Source: Burkholderiales bacterium
Lineage (GTDB): Bacteria; Pseudomonadota; Gammaproteobacteria; Burkholderiales; JAEUOS01
Direction of reading: 5' to 3'
NCBI GenBank assembly: GCA_016790695.1
Contig: JAEUOS010000192.1
Coordinates: 13,064 to 77,063, forward strand
DNA length: 64,000 nucleotides
Below the pieces are notes generated by a model. That model made no database searches and was not told the DNA's origin. It saw nothing but the letters and a program-made list of their open reading frames with translations. Numbering within the stretch: position 1 is the stretch's first letter; the number at the start of each line of letters is the position of its first letter. A program made the position numbers and the translations under genes. Positions 9,373-57,211 of the stretch are shown here, piece by piece.

Positions 9373-9373
9373 G

Positions 9374-39662: not shown

Positions 39663-40631
39663 ATGTCCCTTCCGAAGATCCTGCTGGCGACCTGCCTCGC
39701 CGCGTTCGCCGTCCTGGTCCACGCGCAGGACTTTCCGGCGCGCGCGGTGCGCGTCGTCGTGCCCTACCCGCCGGGCGGCGGGGTCGACGGCCTGGCGCGG
39801 CCGCTCGCCGAGCGCCTGTCGCGCCTGTGGAACCAGCCGGTGGTGGTCGACAACCGTGCCGGCGCCGCGACCCAGATCGGCGGTGATGCCGTCGCCAAGG
39901 CGGCGCCCGACGGCCACACCCTGCTGCTCACCACCGACTCGACGATCACCAGCAACCCGCACCTGTATCCGAAGATGCCGTTCGATCCGATCAGGGACCT
40001 GGCGCCGGTCACGCAGCTGATCGACCTGCATCAGATGGTGGTCGCGCACCCGTCGGTGGGCGCGAGCTCGATGCAGGAACTGGTCGCGCTCGCGCGCGCG
40101 AAGCCCGGCGCGCTCAACTACGGCTCCTACGGCAGCGGCAGCCAGCCGCACCTGCTGTTCGAGGCGCTCAAGGCGCAGACCGGGGTGCAGATCGCGCACA
40201 TCCCGTACAAGGGGATCGCGCCGGCGCTGACGGCGGCGATCGCCGGCGAGGTCCAGCTCACCCTGGGCGGCGCGGCGACCACGCGCGGCCATTTCCAGAC
40301 CGGGCGCCTGAAGCCGCTCGCGATCGCGCGCCAGGAGCGCCTGCCGCTGTATCCCGACGTGCCGACCCTGCGCGAGGCCGGCTTCCCCGACGTCGACCCG
40401 CGGCCGTGGTTCGGCGTGTTCGCGCCGGCGGCGACGCCGCGGGCGGTGATCGAGCGCATCCGCCGCGACATCGCCGCGGTGCTCGCGGAGCCGGAGTTCC
40501 GCGAGCGCGAGATCACCGGCAAGGGCTACACCGGCGTCGGCAACACGCCCGAGGAGTTCGCCGCGTTCATCCGCGCCGACCTGGAGATGAAGGGGCGCCT
40601 GATCCGCGTCTCGGGCGCCAAGGCGGAATAG
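39663..40631 (+). CDS. Bug-family (TctC-like) tripartite tricarboxylate transporter substrate-binding protein
   Basis: 322 aa; signal peptide, VVPYPPGGGVDGLAR, NRAGA, PDGHTLL, YKG motifs. Confidence 0.9.
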   Translation: MSLPKILLATCLAAFAVLVHAQDFPARAVRVVVPYPPGGGVDGLARPLAERLSRLWNQPVVVDNRAGAATQIGGDAVAKAAPDGHTLLLTTDSTITSNPHLYPKMPFDPIRDLAPVTQLIDLHQMVVAHPSVGASSMQELVALARAKPGALNYGSYGSGSQPHLLFEALKAQTGVQIAHIPYKGIAPALTAAIAGEVQLTLGGAATTRGHFQTGRLKPLAIARQERLPLYPDVPTLREAGFPDVDPRPWFGVFAPAATPRAVIERIRRDIAAVLAEPEFREREITGKGYTGVGNTPEEFAAFIRADLEMKGRLIRVSGAKAE

Positions 40632-42478: not shown

Positions 42479-42850
42479 ATGTTCGATCACATCGGCATTC
42501 GCACCGCCAACCTCGAGCGCGCCGTCGCGTTCTACCGCGCCACCCTCGCGAGTCTCGGTCATGTCGTCGGCAGCACCGGCGCGGACTATGCGGGCATCGG
42601 ACCGGCCGGCGCGCCGTGCCTGTGGCTGCACGCCGCCGGCCGGGCGACCGGCGGCGTGCACGTCGCGTTCCGCGCGGCCGACCGCGCCGCGGTCGACGCC
42701 ATGCATGCGGCCGGCCTGGCCGCGGGCGGCCGCGACAACGGCGCGCCGGGCCTGCGCCCGGACTACGGCGCGAACTACTACGCGGCCTTCCTGATCGACC
42801 CCGACGGCAACAACATCGAGGCGGTCTGCCTGGCGCCGGCGGCAGGCTAG
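42479..42850 (+). CDS. Glyoxalase/VOC family protein (single domain)
   Basis: 123 aa from MFDHIGIRTANLERAVAFYRATL; ends ...FLIDPDGNNIEAV. ACGGAGG Shine-Dalgarno. Confidence 0.8.
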   Translation: MFDHIGIRTANLERAVAFYRATLASLGHVVGSTGADYAGIGPAGAPCLWLHAAGRATGGVHVAFRAADRAAVDAMHAAGLAAGGRDNGAPGLRPDYGANYYAAFLIDPDGNNIEAVCLAPAAG

Positions 42851-44010
42851 GCGTCGGCGCAGCCCAGGCCCAGCCCGCGCAGCGCCTCGACCTCGCTGTC
42901 CGCAAAGCCCCAGTCGGCGAGCGCGGCGCGGCCCTGCGCGCCGCGCTCGGGCGCGGGGCCGACGATCGCGCCCGGGGTGCGCGAGAAGCGCGGCGCCGGC
43001 GCCGCCTGCGAGATGCCGGCGACCTCGGTGAAGGTGCCGCGCGCGACGTTGTGCGGGAAGGCGCGCGCCTCGGAGAACGACAGCACCGGCGCGACGCAGG
43101 CGTCGATGCGATTGAACACCTCGGCCCAGGCGTCGCGCGTCCTCGACTTGAACGCGGCGGCGAAGGCCGCGCGCAGTTCCGGCCAGCGCGCGCGGTCATG
43201 CTGCCTGGGCAGGGTCGCGGGGTCGAGGCCGAGGCCGGCGAGCAGTTCCTCGTAGAACTTGGGCTCGATCGCGCCGACCGACATGTGCTTGCCGTCGGCG
43301 GTCTCGTAGACGTCGTACCAGGGCGAACCGGTGTCGAGGATGTTCTCGCCGCGCGCCTCGGTCCAGCTGCCGGCGGCCATCATGCCGGAGAACATCGCCG
43401 CCAGCACCGAGGCGCCGTCGACCATCGCGGCATCGACGACCTGGCCCTTGCCCGAGCGCTGCGCCTCGACGATGCCGCAGGCGATGCCGAACGCGAGGAA
43501 CATGCCGCCGCCGCCGAAATCGCCGACCAGGTTCAGCGGCGGCACCGGCGCCTCGCCCTTGCGCCCGATCGCGTTCAGCACGCCGGTGAGCGCGATGTAG
43601 TTGATGTCGTGGCCGGCGCGCGGCGCCATCGGCCCGTCCTGGCCCCAGCCGGTCATGCGGCCGTAGACCAGCTTCGGATTGGCCGCCAGCAGCACCTCCG
43701 GCCCCAGCCCCAGGCGCTCCATCACCCCGGGGCGGAAGCCCTCGATGATCGCGTCGGCCTTCGCGGCGAGGCGGAGCGCGGCGGCGACCCCGTCCTTCGA
43801 CTTCAGGTCGAGGGTCACCGAGCGGCGCCCGCGCATCATGATCTCGTGGCGCCGCTTGCGGCCCAGGCCGAGCCCGGAGTCGGCCGGGCGGTCGACCAGG
43901 AGGACGTCGGCGCCCATGTCGGCGAGCAGCATGCCGCAGAACGGCCCGGGGCCGATGGCTTCGAATTCGAGGATGCGGATGCCGGACAACGGGCCGGAGC
44001 GCTTGGTCAT
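42847..44010 (-). CDS. Family III CoA-transferase (CaiB/BaiF; alpha-methylacyl-CoA racemase-like)
   Basis: 387 aa; GIRILEFEAIGPGPFCGMLLADMGADV, GHDINY and VGDFGGG motifs. Confidence 0.85.
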   Translation of the reverse strand: MTKRSGPLSGIRILEFEAIGPGPFCGMLLADMGADVLLVDRPADSGLGLGRKRRHEIMMRGRRSVTLDLKSKDGVAAALRLAAKADAIIEGFRPGVMERLGLGPEVLLAANPKLVYGRMTGWGQDGPMAPRAGHDINYIALTGVLNAIGRKGEAPVPPLNLVGDFGGGGMFLAFGIACGIVEAQRSGKGQVVDAAMVDGASVLAAMFSGMMAAGSWTEARGENILDTGSPWYDVYETADGKHMSVGAIEPKFYEELLAGLGLDPATLPRQHDRARWPELRAAFAAAFKSRTRDAWAEVFNRIDACVAPVLSFSEARAFPHNVARGTFTEVAGISQAAPAPRFSRTPGAIVGPAPERGAQGRAALADWGFADSEVEALRGLGLGCADA

Positions 44011-44058: not shown

Positions 44059-44880
44059 CTACGCGCCGGTGAAACGCGGCGCGCGCTTCTCGACGAACGC
44101 GCGCACCGCCTCGTTGTGGTCGGCGGTGCGGGAGCACCGGATGATGCGCTCGGCCTCGCCCGCGATGGCGGCGCCGATGTCGATGCGCGGCGCGTCGTCG
44201 AGGTTGTCCTTGATCGCCGCCAGGGCCACGCGCGGCCCGTCGGCGAGCGACCGGGCCAGCGCGAAGGCCTCGTCCTGCAGCCGGTCGTCGGCGACGACGC
44301 GATGGAACAGGCCGAGGCGCTCGCCGCGCACGGCGTCGACACGCTCGCCGGTGAGCATGAGTTCCCGCGCCCGGCTCGCGCCGACCGCCCGCGTCATCAG
44401 CCAGGCGATGCCGTAGTCGCCGGACAGGCCGACCCGCGTGTAGCCGGTGGCGGCGACGGCGCTCGCGCCGGCGATGCGCAGGTCGCAGGCCAGCGCGATC
44501 GCGAGCCCCGCGCCGACGGCGGCGCCGGGGAGGGCCGCGACCGTCGGCTTGCGCAGCGCGACCAGCGCCCCGGTCAGCCCGCCGTGGCGCTCCTTGTAAT
44601 CGGCCAGGCGCTCGGCGTCGGACAGGTGCGCGCGCGTGCTGTTGCCGCCCATGCCCTTGACGTCGCCGCCGGCACAGAAGGCGCCGCCGGTGCCGGTGAG
44701 GAGAAGCGCGCCGACCGCGGGATCGTCGCCGCAGGCGCGGATCATGCGCCGCAGTGCCGGCGAGAGTTCGTCGGACAGCGCGTTGCGTGCTTCCGGCCGG
44801 TTCAGCGTGATGACGGCGACGCCGTCGCGCACCGCGCACAGCAGCTGCGCGGTTCCGGTCTCGATGGTGCGGCTGGTCAT
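44059..44880 (-). CDS. Enoyl-CoA hydratase/isomerase (crotonase) family
   Basis: ATG at 44880 by codon count (273 aa). ITLNRPEARNAL, FCAGGDV, GAAVGAGLAIALACD. Confidence 0.9.
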   Translation of the reverse strand: MTSRTIETGTAQLLCAVRDGVAVITLNRPEARNALSDELSPALRRMIRACGDDPAVGALLLTGTGGAFCAGGDVKGMGGNSTRAHLSDAERLADYKERHGGLTGALVALRKPTVAALPGAAVGAGLAIALACDLRIAGASAVAATGYTRVGLSGDYGIAWLMTRAVGASRARELMLTGERVDAVRGERLGLFHRVVADDRLQDEAFALARSLADGPRVALAAIKDNLDDAPRIDIGAAIAGEAERIIRCSRTADHNEAVRAFVEKRAPRFTGA

Positions 44881-45008: not shown

Positions 45009-46685
45009 ATGCCCGAATTCGACCTCGTCCTCCACAACGGCCGCATCCACACCCTCGAGACGCCCAACCGGACCGTCGAGGCGCTGGCCGTCGCCGGCGA
45101 TCGCGTCGCCGCCGCCGGCGCGGCGGCGACGCTGCTCGCGGCGCGCGGCGCGCACACCCGGGTGATCGACCTGGCCGGCGCCACGGTCGTGCCCGGATTC
45201 TTCGACGCGCATCCGCACCTGGACCGCATGGGCCTGCGCGACCTGTGCGGGGTGGCGATCGGCCATTGCCGCTCGGTCGCGGAGATCTGCGACGCGGTGC
45301 GCGCGGCGGCCGCGCGCACGCCGCCGGGCGAGTGGATCGTCACCCTGCCGATGGGCGCGCCGCCCGACGACTATGTGTTCGATCCGCGCCAGTTGCGCGA
45401 GGGCCGCTTTCCCGATCGCCGCGACCTCGACCGCGCGGCGCCCGACCACCCGGTCTACATCCGCTCGCCCTGGGGCTGGTGGAGCCGGCTGCCGCTGCCG
45501 TCGGTCGCCAACAGCCGGGCGCTGGCGGCGGCCGGGGTCGACGCCGACACCGCGCTGCCGCCCAAGGTCGAGATGCTGCGCGACGCGACCGGCGCGCCGA
45601 CCGGCGTGTTCCTGGAGCGCAACTGGGCGCCGGTGCTCGAGTACACCCTGTTCCGCTGCGTGCCGCGCTTCACCTACGAGGACCGGGTCGCCGGCCTGCG
45701 CCACGCGGTGCGCGAGACGGTGCGCGCCGGCACCACGGCGGCCTTCGAGGGCCACGGCCTCACGCCGCAGCTGTTCGACGCCTACCGGCGCCTCGAGGCC
45801 GCGGGCGAACTGCCGCTGCGCATGCAGCTGCCCCTGAGCGTGCCGAGCGCGGCCTTCGGGGATGCCAAGATCGGCGCGCTCCTGGCCCACTGGGCGCCGC
45901 GCCTGGCCGGTCGCGGCAGCGCCGCCGGCGCGCGCGGCCTGCTCGCCGAGGAGGGCATCTGCCTCGACGTCGCCGATCCCGGCACCGCGCGCATCATCGC
46001 CACCGGCTACCCCTACGAGCAATGGGCCGGGCACTTCTACCAGGCGCTGCCGCACGAGCGCCTGGTGGCGCTCGGGGTCGCGGCCGCGCGCCTGGGCCTG
46101 CGCGTGTCCACGCTCGTCTGCTACGAGCTCGAGCGCGTGCTCGCCGCCTTCGAGGAGATCGACGCGCAGGTCGGCATCCGCGACCGGCGCTGGGTCGCGG
46201 TGCACGTCACCGAGGCGACGCCGGCGCAGATCGCGCGCATCAAGGCGCTCGGCCTGGTGGCGACCGTCACGCCCGGCTTCATGTACATGGCCAGGGACCG
46301 CTTCAACCTGCAGGCGCTGGGCGCGCGCGGCACGCCGATCCGCGCGCTGCTCGACGCCGGGGTGCCGGTGGCGCTGTCGACCGACGGCGTGCCGCACTCG
46401 ATGCTGTTCGCGCTCTGGGAGGCGCTGGCGCGCTGGGACAACGATGGCCAGGCGCGCCTCGGCGAGTCCGGGCTCACGCGCGAGGAGGCGCTGCGCCTGG
46501 CCACCGTCGCCGGCCACACCCTGACCTGGAACGAGGCGACGCGCGGGCCGCTGGCGGCCGGCATGGCCGCCGACTTCGTGGTGCTCGACGACGACCCGCT
46601 GACCTGCGCGCTCGAGCGCCTGCGCACGCTCGCGGTGCTGCGCACCTTCGTCGGCGGGCGCGAGGTGCACGGGCCGGACGCCTGA
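45009..46685 (+). CDS. Amidohydrolase (Amidohydro_3 / COG1574 YtcJ-like metal-dependent hydrolase)
   Basis: 558 aa; VVPGFFDAHPHL (HxH) near the N-terminus and DFVVLDDDPL near the C-terminus. Confidence 0.85.
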   Translation: MPEFDLVLHNGRIHTLETPNRTVEALAVAGDRVAAAGAAATLLAARGAHTRVIDLAGATVVPGFFDAHPHLDRMGLRDLCGVAIGHCRSVAEICDAVRAAAARTPPGEWIVTLPMGAPPDDYVFDPRQLREGRFPDRRDLDRAAPDHPVYIRSPWGWWSRLPLPSVANSRALAAAGVDADTALPPKVEMLRDATGAPTGVFLERNWAPVLEYTLFRCVPRFTYEDRVAGLRHAVRETVRAGTTAAFEGHGLTPQLFDAYRRLEAAGELPLRMQLPLSVPSAAFGDAKIGALLAHWAPRLAGRGSAAGARGLLAEEGICLDVADPGTARIIATGYPYEQWAGHFYQALPHERLVALGVAAARLGLRVSTLVCYELERVLAAFEEIDAQVGIRDRRWVAVHVTEATPAQIARIKALGLVATVTPGFMYMARDRFNLQALGARGTPIRALLDAGVPVALSTDGVPHSMLFALWEALARWDNDGQARLGESGLTREEALRLATVAGHTLTWNEATRGPLAAGMAADFVVLDDDPLTCALERLRTLAVLRTFVGGREVHGPDA

Positions 46686-46720
46686 GGCCGGCGCGGCCCC
46701 GGGTCCGGTGTCCGGCGGGT

Positions 46721-46735
46721 ATTCCAACTTCGAAT
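46721..46735. promoter_or_regulatory. LysR-type T-N11-A dyad (ATTC-N7-GAAT)
   Basis: attccaacttcgaat, centred 69 nt upstream of the 46797 ATG. It ends 27 nt upstream of a TAGACT -10-like hexamer (46763-46768). Confidence 0.45.
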
Positions 46736-46796
46736 AACCCGGCGCGGCCCGGCCGGGCGACGTAGACTCGCGCATCCGCCTTCTGGAGACGATGCG

Positions 46797-47687
46797 ATGC
46801 GCCTGAACCGATTCATGATCCGCCCGCTGGTCGAGGCGGGGCTGCGCGAGGAACTCAACGCCGGCGACACCACCGGCGGCTTCCTGGTCTGGGACGACGA
46901 TCCGGTGCAGACCGCGCAGATCTACGCCAAGGGCACCGGCGTGGCCTGCGGCCTGCTGTTCGCCGACGAGACCATCAAGCTGATCGACCCGGAGGCGCAG
47001 ATCGAGCACTGCGTCGAGGAAGGCGCCGCGGTCGGCCCGGGCACGGTGCTGCTCAAGGTGCGCGCGCGCGCCTCCGCGTTCTTCATGATCGAGCGCGCGG
47101 CGCTCGACTGGATCCAGCAGCTCTCGGGCATCGCCACCAAGACGCGCCGCTACGTCGACCTGATCCGCCACACCAAGGTGCGCCTGACCGACACCCGCAA
47201 GGGCTGGCCGGGGCTGCGCATGGTGCAGAAGTACGCGGTGCGCGTCGGCGGCGCGCACAACCACATCTTCAACCTCACCAACTGCGTGCTGGTCAAGGAC
47301 AACCACATCAAGATCGCCGGCAGCATCAGGAACGCGGTCGAGATCCTGCGCGCGCGCGCGCAGCACACCTTCAAGTTCGAGGTCGAGTGCGAGTCGCTGG
47401 CAATGGTCGAGGAGGCGCTGGCCTGCGGCGTCGAGGTGATCATGTTCGACAACATGGATCTGGACGAGATGCGCGCGGCGCTCAAGGTCGTCGGCGGCCG
47501 CGCCATCACCGAGGCCTCGGGCGGGGTCAACGAGAGCACCGTGGTCGCGATCGCCGAGACCGGCGTCGACGTGATCTCGGTGGGCGACCTCACGCACACG
47601 GTCAAGGCGCTCGACATCAGCCTCGACGTGCGCGACATCAAGCCCTCGGCGCTGCGCACCATCGACCGGCTGCGGGCGGCCGGCTGA
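46797..47687 (+). CDS. Quinolinate phosphoribosyltransferase (NadC/ModD)-family protein, divergent active site
   Basis: 296 aa; ERAALDWIQQLSGIAT, DTRKGWPGLR, KYAVRVGGAHNH, KDNH, FEVECE, IMFDN and ASGGV all align with my recollection of E. coli NadC. The NHR arginine is Ile here. Confidence 0.8.
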   Translation: MRLNRFMIRPLVEAGLREELNAGDTTGGFLVWDDDPVQTAQIYAKGTGVACGLLFADETIKLIDPEAQIEHCVEEGAAVGPGTVLLKVRARASAFFMIERAALDWIQQLSGIATKTRRYVDLIRHTKVRLTDTRKGWPGLRMVQKYAVRVGGAHNHIFNLTNCVLVKDNHIKIAGSIRNAVEILRARAQHTFKFEVECESLAMVEEALACGVEVIMFDNMDLDEMRAALKVVGGRAITEASGGVNESTVVAIAETGVDVISVGDLTHTVKALDISLDVRDIKPSALRTIDRLRAAG

Positions 47688-48412
47688 TGGCCGCGCCGGC
47701 GCGCTTCCGCGCGCGTCACGGCGTGATCGTCGCGCTCGACGCCGACGGGGTCGACGCCTGCAAGCGCACCATCGATCTCACGGCCGCGGTCGACGGCGTG
47801 GTCGGCTACAAGCTCGGCATGACCATGGTGCTGCGCCTGGGCCTGGCCGAATCGGTGCGCCAGCTGCGCGCGCACACCGACCTGCCGCTCCTGTACGACC
47901 ACCAGAAGGCCGGCCCGGACGTGTTCGACATGGCGCCGAAGTTCGCCGGCCTGTGCGCCGAGGCCGGCGTCGACGGGCTGATCCTGTTCCCCACCGCCGG
48001 GCCGCGCGCGGTCGACGCCTTCGTCGGCGAGACCATCCGGCGCGGCATGCTGGCGCTGGTCGGCGGCGACCTGCCGTTCCCCGACTACAACGTCGGCGGC
48101 GGCGGCTACGTCGCCGACGACGCGCTCGAGCGCATCATCGACCGCGCGATCGCCTGCGGCGCCGACCACTTCGTGGTGCCGGGCAACACGCCGGACAAGC
48201 TGCGCCGTCACGCCGCGCGCCTGAAGGGCCGGCTCGCGCGCCCGGTGTTCGTGGTGCCGGGCATCGGCCCGCTCGGCGGAAAGATCGGCGATCTGGTCGC
48301 CGCCGCCGGCGGTGCCAGCGTCTACGGCGTGGTCGGACGCGCGGTCTACGGCGCGAGCGACCAGACGGCGGCGGCGCGCGCGCTCGCCGACGAGGCGCTG
48401 GCGGCCGGCTGA
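47687..48412 (+). CDS. Orotidine-5'-phosphate-decarboxylase-fold protein (atypical catalytic motif spacing)
   Basis: 241 aa; VALD...GYKLG, VVPGIGPLGG, and YGVVGRAVYGASD (phosphate-gripper end). TGATG overlap with the previous gene. Confidence 0.7.
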   Translation: MAAPARFRARHGVIVALDADGVDACKRTIDLTAAVDGVVGYKLGMTMVLRLGLAESVRQLRAHTDLPLLYDHQKAGPDVFDMAPKFAGLCAEAGVDGLILFPTAGPRAVDAFVGETIRRGMLALVGGDLPFPDYNVGGGGYVADDALERIIDRAIACGADHFVVPGNTPDKLRRHAARLKGRLARPVFVVPGIGPLGGKIGDLVAAAGGASVYGVVGRAVYGASDQTAAARALADEALAAG

Positions 48413-49170
48413 TGCCCGCGCCGCGCGACGACCGCCCGGTCGTGCTGTTCGACTGGGGCGAGACGCTGATGTGGATCCCCGGCATGATCCACGACCCGGA
48501 CCGCCACCTCGCCTGCGTCGAGGAGATCTACGACGAGCGCATCCGGCCGCATGTGCGCGGCGCAAGCGGCGGCGCCCCGGTCGGCCGGTTCGTCGAGCAC
48601 TACCTGCTCGCCTGCCGGCGCCAGATCGCGCAGTCGAAGGCGACCCAGCGCGAGCACAGCTTCGCCGACCGCTTCGCCATGGCCTTCGCGCTGGCCGGCG
48701 TCGACGCGCTGCCGCCGCGCGCGGTGTTCGAGGGCATCGCCGATGCGCTGGGCGACGCGGTCGCGCGCAACGCGCGCCTGCTCGACGGCGCGGCCGACGT
48801 GGTTCCGCGCCTGGCCGCCACCCACCGCCTCGGCGTGGTGTCGAACTACCCGCACGGGCCGGTCGTGGCGGCCAGCCTCGCGCGCTTCGGTCTGCTGCGC
48901 CACTTCGAGGCCGTGGTGGTGTCGTCCGAGACCGGCTGGATGAAGCCGCATGCGGACTGCTACCGCCCCGCGCTCGCGGCGCTGGCGGCCGATCCGGCGC
49001 GCACCCTGATGGTCGGCGACGACCTGGTCAACGACGTCCGGGGCGCGAAGGCGCTGGGCCTCCATACCGCGTGGCTGGCGCCGCACGCGACCGCGCTCGA
49101 TGCCGCGGTCGACATCCACCTGCGGCACCTGGACGAGCTGCCGGCCCATTGCGCGAGGCTGTTCGCATGA
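48412..49170 (+). CDS. HAD-superfamily hydrolase
   Basis: 252 aa; motif I VLFDWGETL, motif II VVSN, motifs III/IV K...VGDDLVNDV. TGATG overlap with the previous gene. Confidence 0.75.
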   Translation: MPAPRDDRPVVLFDWGETLMWIPGMIHDPDRHLACVEEIYDERIRPHVRGASGGAPVGRFVEHYLLACRRQIAQSKATQREHSFADRFAMAFALAGVDALPPRAVFEGIADALGDAVARNARLLDGAADVVPRLAATHRLGVVSNYPHGPVVAASLARFGLLRHFEAVVVSSETGWMKPHADCYRPALAALAADPARTLMVGDDLVNDVRGAKALGLHTAWLAPHATALDAAVDIHLRHLDELPAHCARLFA

Positions 49171-50621
49171 GCTTTCCGACCGACCTCCTGATCGACGGCA
49201 GGTTCGTGCCCGCGGCCGCGGGCGCGCGCTTCGCGGTGACGAGCCCGCTCGATTTCTCCACGCTGGCCGAGGTGGCCGCCGCCGGGCGCGCCGATCTCGA
49301 TCTGGCGGTCGCCGCCGCGCGGCGTGCGTTCGATGCGGGCGCCTGGTCCGGCATGATGCCGTTCGCGCGCGGCAAGCTCTTGCGGCGCATCGCCGAGGGC
49401 ATCCGCGCCGCGGGGCAGCGCCTCGCCGAGGTCGAGACCACGAGCGGCGGCAAGACCATCGCCAATTCCCTGAACGAGGTCGAGTCCGCGGCCAACGTCT
49501 TCGAGTACTACGCCGGCGCGATGGACAAGTTCTACGGCGACACCATCCCGATGGGTTCGTCCGTGCTCGACTTCACGCTGCGCGAGCCGGTCGGCGTGGT
49601 GGCGGCGATCACGCCGTGGAACTTCCCGTTCCTGGCCGCTGCCTGGAAGGTGGCGCCGGCGCTCGCCGCCGGGTGCACGGTCGTCCTGAAGCCGGCGAGC
49701 CACACGCCGCTGACCGCGCTGATGCTGGGCGAGATCGCGCTCGCCGCCGGCGTGCCGGCGGGCGTGCTCAACATCCTGCCGGGACCCGGCGCCGCGCGCG
49801 GCGAGGCCATCGCGCGCCATCCGGGGATCGACAAGATCTCCTTCACCGGCTCGACCGCGGCCGGCGCGCTGCTTTCGCGCCAGGCGGCCGACGGCATCAA
49901 GCGCGTCACCCTGGAACTCGGCGGCAAGAGCCCGAACCTGGTCTTCGCCGACGCCGACATCGGCAAGGCGGCCGCGCAGGCGGTCAAGGCCGGCTTCGGC
50001 AACGCGGGCCAGAGCTGCTCGGCGCGCACCCGCGTCCTGGTCGAGCGCGGCGCCCACGACGCCTTTCTCGAGGCCTTCGCCGCCGCGACCGCGCAGGCGC
50101 GCGTCGGCGATCCGCGCGATCCGGCGACCGAGATCGGGCCGCTGGTCTCGCGCGCGCAGCGCGACACGGTGCACGGCTACGTGGAATCGGGCATTGCCGA
50201 GGGCTGCCGCCTGGTCGCCGGCGGCGCGCCGCCGGCCGGCCTCGGCGGCGGCGCCTACTATGCGCCGACCATCCTCGCCGGCGCGCGCAACGCGATGCGC
50301 GTCGCGCAGGAGGAGATCTTCGGGCCGGTCGTGGTGGTGATGCCGTTCGCCACCGAAGCCGAGGCCGTCGCGCTCGCCAACGACAGCCCCTACGGCCTGA
50401 ACGCCTCGGTATGGACGCGCGACACCGGCCGCGCGCTGCGCGTCGCGCGCGCGATCCGGAGCGGCATGGTCAGCGTAAACTCGCATGGCAGCGCGAGCCG
50501 CTACGGCTTCATGGCGCCGTTCGGCGGCGTCAAGCAGTCGGGCATCGGCCGCGAGCTCGGCATGGACGCGCTGTCGCTGTACACCGACGTCAAGAACGTC
50601 TTCGTCGACCTGGAGGACTGA
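49167..50621 (+). CDS. NAD(P)-dependent aldehyde dehydrogenase
   Basis: 484 aa; ITPWNFP, LELGGKSP, FGNAGQSCSA (catalytic Cys) and EEIFGPV. ATGA overlap with the HAD stop. Confidence 0.9.
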   Translation: MSFPTDLLIDGRFVPAAAGARFAVTSPLDFSTLAEVAAAGRADLDLAVAAARRAFDAGAWSGMMPFARGKLLRRIAEGIRAAGQRLAEVETTSGGKTIANSLNEVESAANVFEYYAGAMDKFYGDTIPMGSSVLDFTLREPVGVVAAITPWNFPFLAAAWKVAPALAAGCTVVLKPASHTPLTALMLGEIALAAGVPAGVLNILPGPGAARGEAIARHPGIDKISFTGSTAAGALLSRQAADGIKRVTLELGGKSPNLVFADADIGKAAAQAVKAGFGNAGQSCSARTRVLVERGAHDAFLEAFAAATAQARVGDPRDPATEIGPLVSRAQRDTVHGYVESGIAEGCRLVAGGAPPAGLGGGAYYAPTILAGARNAMRVAQEEIFGPVVVVMPFATEAEAVALANDSPYGLNASVWTRDTGRALRVARAIRSGMVSVNSHGSASRYGFMAPFGGVKQSGIGRELGMDALSLYTDVKNVFVDLED

Positions 50622-50624
50622 CCC

Positions 50625-51884
50625 GTGGCGAGTCTGGCCATCACCGGCGGCACGCTGATCGACGGCAGCGGCCGCGACCCGCTCGCCCACGCCACCGTCG
50701 TCGTCGAGGACGACCGCATCGTCGCCTGCGGGCCGGCGGCCGGCGTGGCGATCCCGCGCGGCGCGCGCGTGCTCGACGCCGGCGGGCGCACCATCATGCC
50801 GGGCATCATCGACTGCCACGTGCACGGCACCTACCGCGCGCGCGACATGCGCGCGCACCTGCTGAACGCGCCGACCTACAACGTGCTGCGCTCGACCCAC
50901 GTGCTGCGCGAGACCCTCGCCTGCGGCGTCACCACCGCGCGCGACATGGGCGGGGCCGACGCCGGCTTTCGCGAGGCGATCGCCGAGGGCTTCATCGACG
51001 GCCCGCGCCTGCTGATCTCGATCGCCATGGTGTCGCAGACCGGCGGCCACGGCGACGCCTGGGTCCCGGCCGGCCTGCGCGTGCAGAAGCGCGCCTGGCT
51101 GCCGAGCCCGGTCGCCGACGGCGTCGACGAGGTGCGGCGCCTGGTGCGCCACCTGCTGATGGCGGGCGCAGACTTCATCAAGATCTGCGCCACCGGCGGC
51201 ATCACCTCGGTGACCGATTCCTGGGACGAGGCGCAGTTCACCGTCGACGAGATCAAGGTCGCGGTGGCGGAGGCGGCGGCGCGCCGCAAGACGGTCGCGG
51301 TGCACGCCGAGGGCATCGACGGCATCCGCACCGCGCTCGCCTGCGGCATCCATTCGCTCGAGCACGGCTGGTTCATCGACGAGGCCTGCGTCGAGACCAT
51401 GCTCGCGGCCGGCACCTGGTGGGTGCCGACGCTCGCGCTGGTGCCGCTGTCGCTCGAGCACCGCAAGGCCAACAGCGCGTGGGACAAGCAGCAGCTCGCG
51501 AACGAGGCCGGCAAGGAGGCCGAGATCTATGCGCGCATGGAGCGGCAGGTCCCGCTGTGGAAGGACGCGGTGCGGCGCGGCGTCAAGGTCGCCTTCGGCA
51601 CCGACCAGTCGCATCGCCTGCTGGTCGGCGAGAACCTGGTGGAGCTGCGCTTCATGGTCGACTGGCTCGGCATGACGCCGATGCAGGCGCTGGTGGCGGC
51701 GACCGGCCGCGCCGCCGAATGCATCGGCAGGAACGATGTCGGCCGCATCGCGCCGGGGTGCCTCGCCGATCTCCTCGTGGTCGACGGCGACCCGCTCGCC
51801 GACATCCGCGTGCTCGAGGAGCGTTCGCGCCTGAAGCTGGTCATGCAGGGCGGGCGCGCGTTCACCAACACCCTGCGGGAGTAG
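50625..51884 (+). CDS. Amidohydrolase (Amidohydro_1 / COG1228-like)
   Basis: GTG start 3 nt after the ALDH stop, GGAGGA Shine-Dalgarno. 419 aa; MPGIIDCHVHG (HxH) and C-terminal DLLVVDGDPLADI. Confidence 0.85.
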   Translation: MASLAITGGTLIDGSGRDPLAHATVVVEDDRIVACGPAAGVAIPRGARVLDAGGRTIMPGIIDCHVHGTYRARDMRAHLLNAPTYNVLRSTHVLRETLACGVTTARDMGGADAGFREAIAEGFIDGPRLLISIAMVSQTGGHGDAWVPAGLRVQKRAWLPSPVADGVDEVRRLVRHLLMAGADFIKICATGGITSVTDSWDEAQFTVDEIKVAVAEAAARRKTVAVHAEGIDGIRTALACGIHSLEHGWFIDEACVETMLAAGTWWVPTLALVPLSLEHRKANSAWDKQQLANEAGKEAEIYARMERQVPLWKDAVRRGVKVAFGTDQSHRLLVGENLVELRFMVDWLGMTPMQALVAATGRAAECIGRNDVGRIAPGCLADLLVVDGDPLADIRVLEERSRLKLVMQGGRAFTNTLRE

Positions 51885-51886
51885 CC

Positions 51887-52375
51887 ATGTTCTCCACCGA
51901 ACTGCTCGACAAGGCGGCGCGCGCGCTCGCCGCCGCGCGCGCCGCCGGCGTGCGCATCGCCACCGCCGAGACCTGCACCGCGGGCCTGGTCAGCGGCTGC
52001 ATCACCGCGGTGTCGGGCGCGTCGCAGACCTTCGAGCGCGGCTTCGTCCTCTACCACGACAGCGCCAAGGCCACCGGGCTCGGCGTGCCCGAGGAGATCT
52101 CGCGCGCGCACGGCGCGGTGAGCGCCGAGGTCACGCAGGGCCTGGCCGAGGGCGCGCTCGCGCACTCCAGCGCGGGCGTCGCGGTGGCGGTGACCGGCTA
52201 TGCGGGCCCGGGCGGCGGCAGCGCGAAGAACCCGGTCGGGACCTGCTACATCGCCGCGGCGCGGCCGGGCATGCCGACGCTCGTCGAGCGCCACGTGTTC
52301 GCCGGCGATCGCGACGGCGTGCGCCTGGCCGCGGTCGGCGCCGCGCTCGACCTGATCGTCAAGCGCCTCGCCTGA
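51887..52375 (+). CDS. CinA C-terminal-domain / PncC-type nicotinamide-nucleotide amidohydrolase family
   Basis: 162 aa; ATAETCTAGLVSG, SAEV...LAEGA, AVTGYAGPGGGS..NPVGTCYIA. Confidence 0.85.
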   Translation: MFSTELLDKAARALAAARAAGVRIATAETCTAGLVSGCITAVSGASQTFERGFVLYHDSAKATGLGVPEEISRAHGAVSAEVTQGLAEGALAHSSAGVAVAVTGYAGPGGGSAKNPVGTCYIAAARPGMPTLVERHVFAGDRDGVRLAAVGAALDLIVKRLA

Positions 52376-52378
52376 GCC

Positions 52379-53425
52379 GTGCCGGCGCCCGCGACCGGCC
52401 GCGACGTCGGCGCGGCGATCCCGGTCACCATCCTCACCGGCGCGCTCGGCGCCGGCAAGACCACGCTCATCAACACCGCGCTCGCCGGCGCCCTCGCCGA
52501 GGTCGCGGTCGTGGTCAACGAGTTCGGCGAGATCGGCATCGACGATGCGCTGATCCGCGCCGCGAGCGAGGACGTGGTGCTGCTGCCCGGCGGGTGCGTC
52601 TGCTGCGTCGTGCGCGCCGACCTCGCGGTGGCCCTGCTGCAGCTCGAGCGCGGCGCGGCGCGCGGCGAGCATCCGGGGTTCCGGCGCGTGCTCGTCGAGA
52701 CCAGCGGCCTGGCCGAGCCCGGGCCGATCCTGCAGCTGTTCGCCGAGTCGCCGGCGCTGGCGGGGCGCTTCCGCGTCGACGTGCTGGTCTGCGTGGTCGA
52801 CGCCCAGGCCGGCGCCGCGGCGCTCGCGGCGGACGGCGCGGCGCGGCGCCAGGCGCTCCTCGCCGACCGCCTGCTCGTGAGCAAGGCGGAACGGGCGACG
52901 GCGGACGGCCTCGCGGCGCTTGACCGGATGCTCGAGGCGATCAATCCGCAGGCCGAGCGCCTGCGCGCGCCGCGCGGGGTCGCGCAGGCGGACTGGTTCG
53001 GGCCGGCGCCGCTGGCGCACGCGCGCGTGGTGCCGGCGGCGCTGCTGCGCGCCGCGCACGACGACGCGATCGAGTCCTTCGTGCTGCGCTGGGATGCGGC
53101 GCAGCCGCTGGCCGCGATCGGCGACTGGCTGCGCGCCCTGTGCGAGTCGCACGGGGCGCGCATCCTGCGCATCAAGGGCATCGTCGCCGCCGCCGGCGTC
53201 GACGCCGGCGTGGCGGTGCATGCGGTCGGGCACCTGATGGGCCCGCCCGAGTTCCTCGCGCAGCCCGCGGCCGAGTCGCGCGTGGTGCTGATCACCCGCG
53301 GGCTGGAGCCCGGGGATGTGGCACCACCCTGGCCGTGTGCGGCGGGGCGCGCAGCGGCGGCGCCCCGCGCGCGAGCAGCGCCCACACCGCTTCCGCCGCC
53401 GCCGGCAGGGGCGTCCGGCGCCTGA
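52379..53425 (+). CDS. COG0523 (CobW/YjiA-like) metallochaperone GTPase
   Basis: GTG start; Walker A GALGAGKTTL, CxCC metal motif (GGCVCCVV), ETSGLAEP. The last ~40 codons are low-complexity and overlap the convergent LysR gene. Confidence 0.85.
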   Translation: MPAPATGRDVGAAIPVTILTGALGAGKTTLINTALAGALAEVAVVVNEFGEIGIDDALIRAASEDVVLLPGGCVCCVVRADLAVALLQLERGAARGEHPGFRRVLVETSGLAEPGPILQLFAESPALAGRFRVDVLVCVVDAQAGAAALAADGAARRQALLADRLLVSKAERATADGLAALDRMLEAINPQAERLRAPRGVAQADWFGPAPLAHARVVPAALLRAAHDDAIESFVLRWDAAQPLAAIGDWLRALCESHGARILRIKGIVAAAGVDAGVAVHAVGHLMGPPEFLAQPAAESRVVLITRGLEPGDVAPPWPCAAGRAAAAPRARAAPTPLPPPPAGASGA

Positions 53426-54260
53426 GCAGTTCGACGGTCATGGCGATGTCCCAGTCGCCGCCGCCGATGTGCGCGAGGCTGCCGTCGGCCAGATTGCGCT
53501 CGATGGTCGACAGCGGCAGCCACGCGACCCCGGCGCCGGAGAGGGCGAGCTCCTTCAGGATGAACACCAGCGGATCCTCGAACGGGCTCTGCACGCGCAC
53601 CGCGGGCACGCGGCGCGCGACCTCGTCGTCGACCGCGCGCCCGATGTAGGACGAGCGTCCGTACGGGAGGTACGCGAGCGCCGTGCCGGCCGCGACCGGC
53701 AGCGCGAAGCCGGGGCTGCCGCGCCGCTGCGGCGCGCAGACCGGAACCATCGGCTCGTCGGCGATCTCGATCGCGTCGAGGCGATCGAAGCCGGCGGGTC
53801 GCGGCAGCGCCGGATGCCGGTACGACAGCGCGAGGTCGGCTTCGCCGCCCGCGTACAGCGCGGCCACCTCGTCGATCGCCTTGACCGCGCCGCGGCCGAT
53901 CAGCGGGCCGATCTCGCGGTTGAGCCGGGCGAGCAGCGCCGGAAAGAATCCGGCCGAGCATGCGGTCGGCATCAGGAAGTCGACCGTCGGCGCGGTGTCG
54001 GCCTGCCGGGCGCGCACCGAGGCGCGGAAATCGAGCAGCGGCTCGACGCTGCCGACCGCGATCGGCAGCAGCTGCTGGCCCGCGGCGGTGAGTTCCACCG
54101 GCCGCGCGCCGCGGTCGAACAGCGGCGTGCCGACCCAGTCCTCGAGGGCCTGGATGCGGCGGCTGAACGCCGACTGGGTGACGTGGCGTTCCGTCGCCGC
54201 GCGCGAGAAGCTGCCGGTGCGCACCAGGGCCAGGAAGTCCTGCAGCCAGTAGAGCTCCAC
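53292..54260 (-). CDS. LysR-family transcriptional regulator
   Basis: 322 aa; MELYWLQDFLALVRTGSFSRAATERHVTQSAFSRRIQALE HTH. Lies 9 nt downstream of the crotonase gene. Confidence 0.9.
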   Translation of the reverse strand: MELYWLQDFLALVRTGSFSRAATERHVTQSAFSRRIQALEDWVGTPLFDRGARPVELTAAGQQLLPIAVGSVEPLLDFRASVRARQADTAPTVDFLMPTACSAGFFPALLARLNREIGPLIGRGAVKAIDEVAALYAGGEADLALSYRHPALPRPAGFDRLDAIEIADEPMVPVCAPQRRGSPGFALPVAAGTALAYLPYGRSSYIGRAVDDEVARRVPAVRVQSPFEDPLVFILKELALSGAGVAWLPLSTIERNLADGSLAHIGGGDWDIAMTVELLRRRTPLPAAAEAVWALLARGAPPLRAPPHTARVVPHPRAPARG

Positions 54261-55057: not shown

Positions 55058-56047
55058 TCAGTCCGCCTTGATGCCGAGCTCGCGCGCGAGCTGCCCGTAG
55101 CGCTGGTGGTCCGCCTTCATGAAGTCGGCCAGCACCTGCGGCGCGCCGCCGAGGAGGTCGAGGCCGGCGCCGGCCAGGCGCGCGCGCACGTCGGGCATCT
55201 GCAGCACGGCGTTGAATTCCTGGTTGAGCCGCGCGACGACGGGCGCCGGCGTGCCGGCCGGGGCGAGCACGCCGTACCACGCATTGACCTCGACGTTGGC
55301 CACGCCCTGCTCGGTGGCCGTCGGCACCTCCGGCAGCAGCGCCGAGCGCGCCTTCTCGGTCACGGCCAGCGCGACCAGCTTGCCCGAGCGGATGTGCGGC
55401 ACCGCGCCGCCGAGGCCGGTGAACAGGAGCCGCACCTCGCCGCCGATGGCCGCGGTGATCGACGGGCCGACGCCCTTGTACGGCACGTGCAGCAGGTTGA
55501 TGCCGGACGAGCGCTTGAACATCTCGCCGGCGAAATGCATCGGCGAGCCGTTGCCCGGGCTGCCGTAGGGCAGGCCCGGCTGGGCGCGCGCGATGTCGAG
55601 CGCCGCCTTCAGGTTGGCGGCGCCCAGTTGCGGATTGGCGACCAGCACCAGCGGCGTGGTGGCGGGCGCGATCACGGGCGCGAGATCCTTGTGCACGTCG
55701 ACGCCGCCGCCGGCGCCCGGCGCGAGCACGTGCGGGGAGATCACCATCGTGTTCGGCGTGAGCAGCAGGGTGTGGCCGTCGGGTGCCGCCTTGGCGACCG
55801 CGCCGGCGCCGATCAGCGCGCCGGCGCCCGGGCGGTTCTCCACCACCGCGCCCTGGCCGAGGCGGGCGGCGAGCTTCTCCGCGATCACGCGCGCGGCGAT
55901 GTCGGGACCGCCGCCCGGGGGGAACGGCACGACGATGGTGAGGCCCTTGGTCGGGAAGGTCTGGGCGTGCGCGGCCGCCAATGGCAAGGCGGCCGCCGGG
56001 CAGCACAAGGCGACGAGCAGGGTGCGAGAACGCAGGAGACGATTCAT
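55058..56047 (-). CDS. Bug-family (TctC-like) substrate-binding protein
   Basis: ATG at 56047 by codon count (329 aa). Signal peptide, VVPFPPGGGPDIAAR, NRPGAG, PDGHTLL, YKG. Confidence 0.9.
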   Translation of the reverse strand: MNRLLRSRTLLVALCCPAAALPLAAAHAQTFPTKGLTIVVPFPPGGGPDIAARVIAEKLAARLGQGAVVENRPGAGALIGAGAVAKAAPDGHTLLLTPNTMVISPHVLAPGAGGGVDVHKDLAPVIAPATTPLVLVANPQLGAANLKAALDIARAQPGLPYGSPGNGSPMHFAGEMFKRSSGINLLHVPYKGVGPSITAAIGGEVRLLFTGLGGAVPHIRSGKLVALAVTEKARSALLPEVPTATEQGVANVEVNAWYGVLAPAGTPAPVVARLNQEFNAVLQMPDVRARLAGAGLDLLGGAPQVLADFMKADHQRYGQLARELGIKAD

Positions 56048-56069
56048 CGACATTTCCGGGGCAAGGGAA

Positions 56070-56097: not shown

Positions 56098-56221
56098 GGA
56101 GGGCGAAAGATACCGGCAATCCGCAGGCTGCGCTACGCCGGGCCCGTGACAGCAAAGGCACATGCCGGCACGGCGAATTGTGTTGAAATGGACCTGGCAC
56201 TCGCACCCCGGGGAGAGGCAA

Positions 56222-57211
56222 ATGCACACCATGTTGACGCGCCGTCGTTTCGTCGCCAGCGGTACCGCTCTGGCGGTCGGCGCGGGCGTTGGTCCGGCGC
56301 TTGGGCAATCCGCTGCGTGGCCGACGCGGCCGGTCCGCATGCTCGTGCCTTTTCCTCCGGGAGGCGGTGCCGACTTCATCGCGCGCATGCTCGGCCAGAA
56401 GCTGGCCGAAATCTGGGGCCAGCAGGTGCTTGTCGACAATCGCCCGGGGGCGAGCACGATGATCGCGCACGAGGCCGTCGCCAAGGCCGCTCCCGACGGC
56501 TACACGCTGATCCTTGCGGTGAGCAATCACGCCAGCAACCCGGCGCTGTTTTCCAAAATCCCCTACGACACGGTCAAGGACTTCACGCCGATCACCGTCG
56601 TCGGCAGCGCGCCAATGGTCCTGGTGGTCAATCCCCGCCTGCAGGCCAGGACCTTGCAGGAGTTGCTTGCCGCGATGCGCGAGAAGCCAGGCAGAATGAG
56701 CTATGCCTCTGCGGGCAATGGCAGTGTCGGCCACCTTGGCGGCGAACTCCTGAAACAGCTTACCGGCGTGGACATGGTGCATATCGCCTACAAGGGCACC
56801 GGACCGGCCGAACTCGACCTGATCGGCGGCACCGTCGACCTGATGTTCACCGGCATGGTCACCGCCGTGCCGCAGATCAAGGCGGGCAAGATGCGCGGTG
56901 TCGCCGTCGGCAGCCTGATGCGCTCCAGCGCGCTTCCGGAGTTGCCTTCGATCAGCGAGGCCGGCGTACCGGGATTCGAGTCGAGCATCTGGTACGGCCT
57001 GCTCGGCCCTGCCGGCTTGCCGCGCGAAATCGTGGCGAAGGTTCATGCCGACACACTGAAGGTGCTGCAGTTGCCCGACACCCGCAGTCGGCTCTTGAGT
57101 CAGGGCGCGGAAGCCATCGGCAGTACCCCGGAGCAGTTCGCACGTCAGATCGAGGCCGAGATCGCCAGGTGGATCAAGCTGGTCAAGGCGGCGGGCATCA
57201 AGAGCGAGTAG
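56222..57211 (+). CDS. Bug-family (TctC-like) substrate-binding protein
   Basis: ATG at 56222 after GGGGAGAGG (329 aa). Tat-like TRRRFV signal, LVPFPPGGGADFIAR, NRPGAS, PDGYTLI, YKG. Confidence 0.9.
   Translation: MHTMLTRRRFVASGTALAVGAGVGPALGQSAAWPTRPVRMLVPFPPGGGADFIARMLGQKLAEIWGQQVLVDNRPGASTMIAHEAVAKAAPDGYTLILAVSNHASNPALFSKIPYDTVKDFTPITVVGSAPMVLVVNPRLQARTLQELLAAMREKPGRMSYASAGNGSVGHLGGELLKQLTGVDMVHIAYKGTGPAELDLIGGTVDLMFTGMVTAVPQIKAGKMRGVAVGSLMRSSALPELPSISEAGVPGFESSIWYGLLGPAGLPREIVAKVHADTLKVLQLPDTRSRLLSQGAEAIGSTPEQFARQIEAEIARWIKLVKAAGIKSE

Follow-up and report, generated by a model that had tools for sequence, protein, structure and literature searches.

In a stretch of 64,000 nucleotides from the genome of a Burkholderiales bacterium (contig JAEUOS010000192.1, positions 13,064 to 77,063; from here on, the window), we found a tightly packed operon of seven genes, a metabolic unit built from known folds that probably brings three new enzyme specificities along with a new route to pyridine ring opening. 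It pairs a phosphoribosyltransferase resembling NadC with an enzyme of the orotidine 5'-monophosphate (OMP) decarboxylase (OMPDC) fold, here called OMPDC-like. The reading that we favor is that the operon serves the oxygen-independent catabolism of a pyridine monocarboxylate at the ribonucleotide level, with 6-hydroxypicolinate as the best candidate substrate. We put the probability of this specific reading at roughly 0.45; its general form, the ribotide-level catabolism of some pyridine carboxylate or carboxamide, seems to us likely.

The operon and its conserved core

The seven genes lie on the forward strand between positions 46797 and 53425:

46797..47687, + strand, NadC-like type II phosphoribosyltransferase, 296 aa (Pfam QRPTase_C 197 bits, QRPTase_N 51 bits)
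47687..48412, + strand, OMPDC-like enzyme of the OMP decarboxylase fold, 241 aa (Pfam OMPdecase, 45 bits only)
48412..49170, + strand, HAD-IA phosphatase of the YjjG-like nucleotidase type, 252 aa (Pfam Hydrolase, HAD_2, Hydrolase_like)
49167..50621, + strand, NAD(P)-dependent aldehyde dehydrogenase (ALDH), 484 aa (Aldedh 567 bits)
50625..51884, + strand, metal amidohydrolase AH1 of a carboxypeptidase/ochratoxinase-like clade, 419 aa (Amidohydro_1 155 bits)
51887..52375, + strand, CinA/PncC-family amidase of a divergent subfamily (CinA-like), 162 aa (CinA, PF02464, 150 bits)
52379..53425, + strand, COG0523 (CobW-type) GTPase metallochaperone, 348 aa (cobW 140 bits, CobW_C 48 bits)

The junctions between them are, in this order, TGATG (-1), TGATG (-1), ATGA (-4), +3, +2 and +3 nucleotides, exactly the lengths from which an initial reading of the DNA letters alone (the sequence-only reading) had proposed a translationally coupled unit, and a promoter and terminator scan of the window found no terminator-like site on the forward strand inside it. 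The genes form one tightly packed, conserved unit. Every domain call of that reading, put forward for checking with hidden Markov models (HMMs), was reproduced by Pfam and NCBIfam searches. The G+C content of the window is 72 to 76%, and the eight forward-strand open reading frames (ORFs) at 45009-53425, translated as proposed, have a third-position G+C content of 0.95 to 0.98.

With a profile of the OMPDC-like protein, at least 486 related loci were confirmed and 80 of them fetched; the sources of these 80 span Beta-, Alpha-, Gamma- and Deltaproteobacteria, Acidobacteriota, Rubrobacteraceae, Mycobacterium, Firmicutes and one cyanobacterium. Cultured carriers of the cluster include Tistlia consotensis USBA 355, Acuticoccus mangrovi B2012, Mycobacterium sp. 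E1214 and Bacillus methanolicus PB1. Partner genes were counted by tblastn of the window proteins in the 42 loci whose OMPDC-like gene had 5 kb or more of flanking sequence in both directions. The NadC-like gene was present in 35 of these 42 loci, the CinA-like gene in 36, AH1 in 34 and ALDH in 33; partners were on the same strand as the OMPDC-like gene in every case, in 18 distinct gene orders. The conserved core is made up of the NadC-like, OMPDC-like, CinA-like, AH1 and ALDH genes. The pairing of a phosphoribosyltransferase with an OMPDC-fold enzyme, already pointed out from the letters, is real and strongly co-conserved, and the neighbors, whose lack of co-conservation had been named as a possible point of refutation, are kept together in shuffled orders. 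Membership of the other genes held in part. The HAD phosphatase (18/42) and the COG0523 GTPase (15/42), both counted as pathway members by the sequence-only reading, are present as accessory genes only. It had also enlisted two metal amidohydrolases: AH1 belongs to the set, but the COG1574-type enzyme encoded upstream of the operon is found in a single locus of the 42 and therefore stands outside it, with a homologue adjoining the cluster only in L012. The placement of this gene upstream and of a LysR gene downstream was correct; neither is a conserved part of the set, the LysR gene occurring in 10 of 42 loci and taking a window-like position in close Burkholderiales relatives only.

The NadC-like protein is the best-conserved member, with a median identity of 82%, compared with 62% for the OMPDC-like protein, and 50 to 92% identity across phyla. 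There is no oxygenase in the conserved gene set, and no nad or pyr genes were found among the families recurring at the cluster in related loci. A tblastn search of 72,556 plasmids with the OMPDC-like protein gave no match.

Divergence of the NadC-like, OMPDC-like and CinA-like enzymes

In a structure-linked alignment, the substrate pocket of the NadC-like protein reads TRK-GW ... GGA-H-NH-I, whereas solved NadC structures read TRK-TT ... GGG-R-NH-R. The protein aligns with the Thermus NadC (PDB 1x1o) at 220 bits and keeps the TRK and KDNH motifs for phosphoribosyl pyrophosphate (PRPP) and ribose phosphate. The canonical NHR motif is absent from all 69 cluster-linked copies, and the 66 in which the motif could be read all have Ile or Leu in place of its Arg. 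In NadC, R138, H160, R161 and K171 bind the 3-carboxylate of nicotinate mononucleotide (NaMN), and R161 of the human and pig enzymes is key to quinolinate binding (PMC3633916). It is the Arg equivalent to human R161 or Mycobacterium tuberculosis R162 that is missing here, so the assignment of the phosphoribosyltransferase to the pyridine-dicarboxylate type, made from the letters, is probably wrong. The pocket appears less cationic and more hydrophobic, which would fit a monocarboxylate or a neutral substrate, and the loss of the quinolinate-binding Arg suggests a monocarboxylate, for example 6-hydroxypicolinate. Public annotation labels the cluster proteins NadC and OMP decarboxylase; the closest 120 NadC-like homologues (P0271-P0390) are all at least 80% identical, and every named one is called "carboxylating nicotinate-nucleotide diphosphorylase." Because the quinolinate-binding Arg is missing, this name is likely a systematic over-annotation.

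The OMPDC-like protein reaches only 50 bits with the NCBIfam model PRK13813 (cutoff, 208) and 26 bits with PRK00230 (cutoff, 193). The best Foldseek matches of its AlphaFold2 model (pLDDT 86) are solely archaeal-type OMPDC structures, with TM-scores of 0.75 to 0.85 and 20 to 21% identity. Residues D18, K42, D71, K74 and D78 are invariant, as is the phosphate gripper G217-R218, and the catalytic motif is spaced D-x-x-K-x-x-x-D (YDHQKAGPD) as opposed to the D-x-K-x-x-D of OMP decarboxylase. The same unusual spacing is found in proteins fused to PyrE, which are probably true OMPDCs. What sets the cluster enzyme apart from these is a Gln, residue 185 of Mt-OMPDC, which we take to be linked to Ser127 in the pyrimidine-recognition network and to recognize N3-H and O4. 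All cluster-type copies in which the motif could be read (PGIG(P/A)-L-GG or TG(I/F)G-x-(L/M)-GG) have Leu or Met here, whereas the PyrE-fused and deeper relatives carry Gln. In an exhaustive HMM search, the cluster type formed a compact subfamily, led by P0121 and P0122 with more than 360 bits and continued by fragments with lower scores; proteins with the YDHQK motif that keep the Gln came in below about 205 bits, several of them fused to PyrE-like domains and located among housekeeping genes. The Gln-keeping proteins probably represent an under-recognized subtype of true OMP decarboxylase that scores far below the NCBIfam cutoffs, and the cluster enzyme would be their neofunctionalized sibling.

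Fusions of OMPDC-like proteins to type I phosphoribosyltransferases were considered as Rosetta stone evidence and rejected. Their phosphoribosyltransferase halves are PyrE-like, the Gln is kept and the neighborhood is that of housekeeping genes, so that they are probably genuine enzymes of the UMP synthase type. Such fusions are encoded in L085 (4774-6279, P0176) and L086 (8001-9509, P0162), and two more are P0143 and P0169; they have the motif YDHQK(A/G)xD, and their neighbors include archaeal ribosomal and RNA polymerase genes.

The CinA-like amidase misses the cutoff of the PncC equivalog model NF002975 (129 bits; cutoff, 212) and passes that of the domain model TIGR00199 (128 bits; cutoff, 68.9). 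It has Thr29 and Leu55 in 41 of 41 copies and His57 in 40 of 41, with Ala or Ser at position 32 and Lys61 kept. In the aligned PDB homologues, positions 29, 55 and 57 are Ser, Thr and Ser/Thr, and the three best matches read AESCTGG. The active-site neighborhood of PncC consists of AES29CTGG, TYS/T and K61, with a role for the Ser and the Lys.

Taken with the absent NHR motif of the NadC-like protein and the low score and lost Gln of the OMPDC-like one, the missed cutoff and the Thr29, Leu55 and His57 of the amidase mark these enzymes as divergent subfamilies rather than housekeeping NadC, PyrF and PncC, in support of the interpretation given in the sequence-only reading. That ordinary nadC, pyrF and pncC genes merely lie by chance beside unrelated hydrolases would suit the public labels and the score of the NadC-like protein with the nadC model TIGR00078 of NCBIfam (286.6 bits, above the cutoff of 198.4). 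We regard this explanation, already disfavored, as scarcely credible, given a five-gene core that is co-conserved in shuffled orders, the loss of the quinolinate-binding Arg in every copy with the motif read, the OMPDC Gln lost at a score of 50 bits against 208, an altered CinA active-site region and the lack of nad or pyr genes recurring at the cluster.

The other enzymes belong to broader families. AH1 scores 281 bits with the model XaaProDiPepCaul (NF051886; cutoff, 500), shows the H-x-H metal motif (DCHVHG), and has PDB relatives 3mkv, 3mtw, 3feq and 4c5y at about 190 to 200 bits, in a clade with Sgx9260 prolidases, the Cc2672 carboxypeptidase and ochratoxinase. The ALDH reaches no NCBIfam equivalog, and its best PDB match, 4-hydroxymuconic semialdehyde dehydrogenase (4go4, 418 bits), is not discriminating for the subfamily. 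For the HAD phosphatase, the best NCBIfam match is the YjjG family of non-canonical pyrimidine nucleotidases, at 76 bits and below the cutoff.

Pic-like module and the candidate pathway

In relatives, among them many Burkholderiales, the cluster is physically linked to a module for the uptake and hydroxylation of picolinate. In six loci (L023, L026-L029 and L035), a gene for a TRAP binding protein lies directly upstream of the NadC-like gene or divergent from it. This protein matches PDB 4YIC/4YZZ at 477 bits, and its model superposes on them with TM-scores of 0.90 to 0.97. The entry titles name Bordetella bronchiseptica RB50 BB0280, whose gene is inside the RB50 picolinate-degradation (pic) cluster bb0268-bb0283 (PMC10142695). 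A three-subunit Mo hydroxylase adjoins the binding protein, with a molybdenum cofactor (MoCo) subunit, an FAD subunit and a subunit combining [2Fe-2S] and CoxG/SRPBCC domains; this is the unusual layout of PicA. The picolinate dehydrogenase PicA1A2A3, which makes 6-hydroxypicolinate, is composed of subunits with MCD (molybdopterin cytosine dinucleotide), with FAD and with [Fe-S]+SRPBCC (bioRxiv 10.1101/530550). Through a homologous binding protein we found a pic-type reference locus, L088, with the genes MarR, DctP, MoCo, FAD and FeS-CoxG subunits, and Rieske alpha and beta subunits. The hydroxylase subunits of the cluster-bearing loci compare with it as follows:

Large subunit (PicA1-like), 64-71% identity to L088, in L016, L029, L028 and L023
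FAD subunit (PicA2-like), 44-55% identity to L088, in L016, L023, L028 and L029, and in L003, L004, L024 and L036
FeS-CoxG subunit (PicA3-like), 36-55% identity to L088, in L016, L023, L028 and L029, and in L003, L004, L017, L020, L024 and L030

In L029, the genes run on one strand with short gaps from DctQMP through PicA1A2A3-like subunits, a protein of 141 aa (family c28) and a glutathione S-transferase (GST) to the NadC-like gene and on to COG0523; in L023 and L028, the hydroxylase and uptake module and the cluster are divergent. The GST, a possible cis-trans isomerase, occurs in 8 loci. The Rieske oxygenase PicB had no homologue, for either its alpha or its beta subunit, in the 80 loci or the window, and the recurrent families showed no enzymes of the PicC-G type, PicC-G not having been searched for directly.

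The c28 family (about 141 aa) has no Pfam or NCBIfam match. It is encoded at 7845-8270 in L029 and also in L016, L017, L020, L023, L024, L028 and L030; where its neighbors are visible, the PicA3-like subunit is on one side of it and the GST or the NadC-like gene on the other.

To our knowledge, every characterized aerobic route for picolinate or nicotinate depends on oxygenases, and we know of no account of how 6-hydroxypicolinate is handled without oxygen. The conserved enzymes of the cluster, unlike PicB and PicD, need no O2. 6-Hydroxypicolinate is a 3-deaza-4-deoxy analogue of orotate, with a ring NH between C=O and C-COO- like N1 of orotate. The NadC-like enzyme would transfer the phosphoribosyl group of PRPP to this ring nitrogen. 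The ribotide would be a neutral lactam like OMP and not cationic like quinolinate mononucleotide; the ylide decarboxylation of NadC would thus be barred, and a separate OMPDC-type enzyme would be required. By removing the carboxylate beside the ribosylated nitrogen, the OMPDC-like enzyme would give 1-(5-phosphoribosyl)-2-pyridone, and the loss of its Gln would make sense because the positions of the pyrimidine N3-H and O4 are CH in the pyridone.

The ring amide would then be hydrolyzed by the CinA-like amidase or, in seven loci, by a HisI-like cyclohydrolase. HisI normally cuts the bond between a phosphoribosylated ring nitrogen and the neighboring carbon. In phosphoribosyl-AMP, HisI opens an N1-C6 amidine of which the phosphoribosyl-pyridone would be the oxo analogue; a HisI-like or CinA-like protein would therefore be a natural ring opener. 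AH1 would hydrolyze the resulting N-ribosyl enamine or imine to glutaconate semialdehyde and phosphoribosylamine, which would go on to ribose 5-phosphate and NH3; alternatively, AH1 may be the ring opener itself. The ALDH would oxidize glutaconate semialdehyde to glutaconate, the HAD phosphatase would act on the ribose moiety, and a nucleoside hydrolase and a PRPP synthetase would recycle the ribose in other loci. The COG0523 protein would load metal into a hydrolase, and the GST, enoyl-CoA hydratase and CoA-transferase genes may serve the handling of the cis-unsaturated dicarboxylate. The substrate, the order of the ring-opening and imine-hydrolysis steps, and the end product are only what we infer.

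Variant loci, flanking genes and known systems

Where the NadC-like gene is missing, another type II phosphoribosyltransferase stands beside the OMPDC-like gene. L045, L053, L056 and L066 have a genuine NadV/NAMPT there (435 bits with PDB 7yqo), and the Firmicutes loci have a very divergent NAMPT-like protein. NAMPT shares an operon with the genes for AH1 and for the OMPDC-like and CinA-like proteins in L045, L053, L056 and L081-L084, and is divergent in L066. In loci fetched with the OMPDC-like profile, the phosphoribosyltransferase partner is thus swappable and the OMPDC-like gene constant. A HisI paralogue (112 bits; cutoff, 126) is encoded directly 3' of the OMPDC-like gene in the seven loci mentioned, which are exactly those that lack the CinA-like gene, so the two look like non-homologous replacements for one step. 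An OMPDC-like::CinA fusion (P0155, from a metagenomic lineage) lies between NAMPT and HAD genes, and of the fusions only this one is informative. L067 and L072 have a PRPP synthetase (Prs) gene next to the OMPDC-like one; an inosine-uridine (IU) nucleoside hydrolase is present in L045, L064 and L067. From these variant loci we infer that the OMPDC-like enzyme acts on the product of a pyridine-type phosphoribosyltransferase, that PRPP is used stoichiometrically and that hydrolytic C-N cleavage follows.

Several of these loci have features of their own. L056 encodes a nitrile hydratase in three ORFs (beta-N, beta-C and alpha; 8479-9775) between its NadC-like and OMPDC-like genes, with CinA-like and NAMPT genes after; the split-beta layout resembles that of toyocamycin nitrile hydratase and suggests a nitrile-bearing heterocycle as the input in that lineage. 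L045 (7152-8387, reverse strand), like L050, has genes for a 248-aa, weakly TrpF-like protein (34 bits) and a PNPOx-like flavoprotein, in L045 divergent and upstream of AH1, OMPDC-like, CinA-like and NAMPT genes; a TrpF-like Amadori enzyme would fit an N-aryl or enamine ribosylamine intermediate. In L081 and L082, a CbiM/PDGLE metal-uptake pair, divergently oriented, adjoins the set of NAMPT, OMPDC::CinA and HAD genes. Together with the COG0523 gene of the window, this pair hints at a specific metal need (Co or Ni?) of one hydrolase. The Firmicutes version of the cluster in L067, from Aneurinibacillus danicus, has an IS605 OrfB/TnpB (Cas12f-like) gene directly downstream (14822-15994).

The loci with NAMPT bear on a different route, the catabolism of nicotinamide or nicotinate by way of nicotinamide mononucleotide (NMN) and NaMN, which we consider unlikely. 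NadV would make NMN, or the NadC-like enzyme would make NaMN from nicotinate; the CinA-like enzyme would deamidate NMN, the OMPDC-like enzyme would decarboxylate NaMN at C3, AH1 would open the N-ribosylpyridinium to a glutaconaldehyde-type product, and the ALDH would oxidize it. Besides the bona fide NAMPT in operons with AH1, OMPDC-like and CinA-like genes (and divergent in L066), this route would account for the membership of CinA in the PncC family, while the loss of one or two Arg in the NadC-like protein also suits nicotinate and the nitrile hydratase of L056 suggests a series from nitrile through amide and acid to decarboxylation. However, the CinA-like protein has other residues where PncC has Ser29, Thr55 and Ser57, and it stays below the equivalog cutoff. 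On chemical grounds, an OMP-type decarboxylase would target the carboxylate beside the ribosylated nitrogen and not C3, and decarboxylation would lower the electrophilicity of the pyridinium ahead of ring opening. Moreover, the PicT/PicA-like module before the cluster would be left unexplained, and a drain of NaMN would compete with NAD synthesis.

Improbable, in our view, is that the ribotide is only a handle for decarboxylation, the base being ribotylated, deamidated and/or decarboxylated, dephosphorylated by the HAD enzyme, freed by a nucleosidase and degraded elsewhere, with AH1 and ALDH acting on the freed base or on side products. This would be comparable to the conversion of orotate to uracil or to that by PyrZ, a NadC homologue that, as cited in PMC12339860, takes quinolinate through NaMN to nicotinate and so provides a precedent. 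The HAD gene (18/42), the IU-nucleoside hydrolase in three loci and Prs in two would find a place in such a scheme, as would the Firmicutes set of NAMPT-like, OMPDC-like and HisI-like proteins with Prs, a nucleosidase and a Cof-type HAD enzyme, which has no AH1 or ALDH. Nevertheless, AH1 (34/42) and ALDH (33/42) are kept more often than HAD or the nucleosidase, and no mono- or dioxygenase for a freed pyridone is linked to the cluster.

That the operon makes a modified pyridine nucleotide or nucleoside, for example a cofactor, a pincer-type molecule that binds metal, or a natural product, appears more improbable again. This would be in keeping with the very high conservation of the proteins (50 to 92% for the NadC-like one across phyla), the linked metallochaperone and the CbiM/PDGLE pair beside the NAMPT, OMPDC::CinA and HAD genes of one lineage. 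Against this, the links to TRAP, TTT (tripartite tricarboxylate transporter), ABC and MFS uptake systems, a Mo hydroxylase, ALDH and LysR/MocR regulators form a pattern typical of catabolic islands, and no conserved tailoring, export or resistance genes were found.

The reading that we prefer, degradation of 6-hydroxypicolinate as its ribotide, also has observations that weigh against it. As said, the NadC-like protein passes the nadC cutoff. The solved relatives of AH1 cleave linear N-acyl amino acid bonds, not imines, and it is speculative that the CinA-like enzyme acts on a ring amide and not on a carboxamide. The bona fide NAMPT of several lineages, together with the PncC ancestry of CinA, suggests nicotinamide- or NMN-type substrates for at least part of the family, and a two-subunit hydroxylase of the IorAB type or a decarboxylase of the UbiD type takes the equivalent place in other loci, so that the input may vary. 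The ligand of 4YIC is taken here to be picolinic acid, and L088 is called pic-type by its gene organization alone. Many alphaproteobacterial loci have no PicT- or PicA-like gene within 10 kb, and tblastn found no PicT- or PicA-like gene in the window.

Around the operon, the window contains the following genes:

42847-44010, - strand, CoA-transferase III, divergent (CoA_transf_3 285 bits)
44059-44880, - strand, enoyl-CoA hydratase, divergent (ECH_1 176 bits)
45009..46685, + strand, Amidohydro_3 (COG1574-type) hydrolase, 558 aa, a lineage-specific neighbor (Amidohydro_3 206 bits)
53292..54260, - strand, convergent LysR-type regulator, 322 aa, a possible local regulator (HTH_1 and LysR_substrate)

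The COG1574-type gene ends at 46685, and 111 nucleotides separate it from the NadC-like gene. At the other end, with the ORFs as predicted, COG0523 (+) and LysR (-) share 134 nucleotides at their 3' ends (53292-53425); the part of the COG0523 protein past CobW_C is Ala/Pro-rich and of low complexity and overlaps the end of the LysR gene. One family of enoyl-CoA hydratases (c42) is found again near the cluster in 6 loci, the window included, and the CoA-transferase and enoyl-CoA hydratase of the window are possible handlers of an unsaturated dicarboxylate, although the link is weak. Three TctC (Bug) binding proteins are encoded in the window (39663-40631, 55058-56053 and 56162-57211), which also has two family III CoA-transferases (42847-44010 and 60835-62004) and two enoyl-CoA hydratases on the flanks of the operon. 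Three TctC and two CoA-transferase genes within 20 kb are typical of Burkholderiales, and none is tied to the cluster by conservation. A tblastn search of the window for homologues of the Mo hydroxylase, UbiD, HisI-like, NAMPT, DctP, GST and c28 proteins found none.

Full-text literature searches returned no published description of the gene set and no assigned pathway, in agreement with the failure of the sequence-only reading to match it to any characterized route. Several known systems resemble it in part. Orotate phosphoribosyltransferase and OMP decarboxylase (orotate to OMP to UMP, uridine 5'-monophosphate) also couple a PRPP-dependent phosphoribosyltransferase to an OMPDC-fold enzyme with the Asp/Lys set and the Gly-Arg gripper, and 6-hydroxypicolinate is isosteric with orotate at the N-C(COO-) edge. 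However, the phosphoribosyltransferase of the cluster is of type II (NadC/NAMPT family) and not PyrE, its partner has the D-x-x-K-x-x-x-D spacing and Leu or Met for Gln, and the context is catabolic, with hydrolases and ALDH downstream. NadC and PncC of NAD metabolism share folds and families with the cluster enzymes, including TRK, KDNH and Lys61, but differ in the Ile or Leu at the R161 equivalent, the change from TT to GW, and the changes of Ser29 to Thr, Thr55 to Leu and Ser57 to His. The pic cluster of Alcaligenes faecalis JQ135 and B. bronchiseptica RB50 has counterparts in the BB0280 homologue and the PicA1A2A3-like hydroxylase of the relatives (at most 71% identity to L088); in place of its oxygen-dependent lower pathway stands the set of NadC-like, OMPDC-like, CinA-like, AH1 and ALDH genes, and the window is without PicT and PicA.

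Histidine synthesis (HisG, then HisI) likewise ribosylates a ring nitrogen with PRPP and hydrolyzes beside it, and a HisI paralogue replaces CinA in the seven loci, whereas the ring handled by the cluster would be a pyridine or pyridone and not adenine, there are no HisA/HisF-type steps and the purpose would be catabolic. In the URC pathway of uracil catabolism in yeasts, a phosphoribosyltransferase makes a ribotide, ring opening takes place on the nucleotide and the ribosyl fragment goes back into use; that pathway differs in its homologue of GTP cyclohydrolase II, its pyrimidine substrate and its eukaryotic host. PyrZ, as far as its citation in PMC12339860 describes it, is also a NadC-family enzyme used outside NAD synthesis with a transient ribotide; unlike the cluster enzyme, it acts on quinolinate and frees nicotinate alone, without an OMPDC-like partner.

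Rather tentatively, we suggest that this is a widespread oxygen-independent way of opening pyridine rings, by PRPP ribotylation (of 6-hydroxypicolinate and, elsewhere, of nicotinamide-type compounds), decarboxylation by an enzyme of the OMPDC family and hydrolysis by PncC- or HisI-like proteins. A PRPP-activated lower pathway of hydrolases and a dehydrogenase would, if true, fill the oxygen-free gap in the handling of 6-hydroxypicolinate and extend to pyridine catabolism the logic of histidine synthesis, in which the ring is first ribosylated and then opened. OMP decarboxylase, a textbook one-reaction enzyme, would gain a functional sibling with a different base, the first known member of its family to act on a non-pyrimidine, and new specificities would be added to the NadC and PncC families. 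Hundreds of genes now labeled NadC, PyrF and PncC would then represent a new pathway with three new activities, and a systematic misannotation would be corrected.

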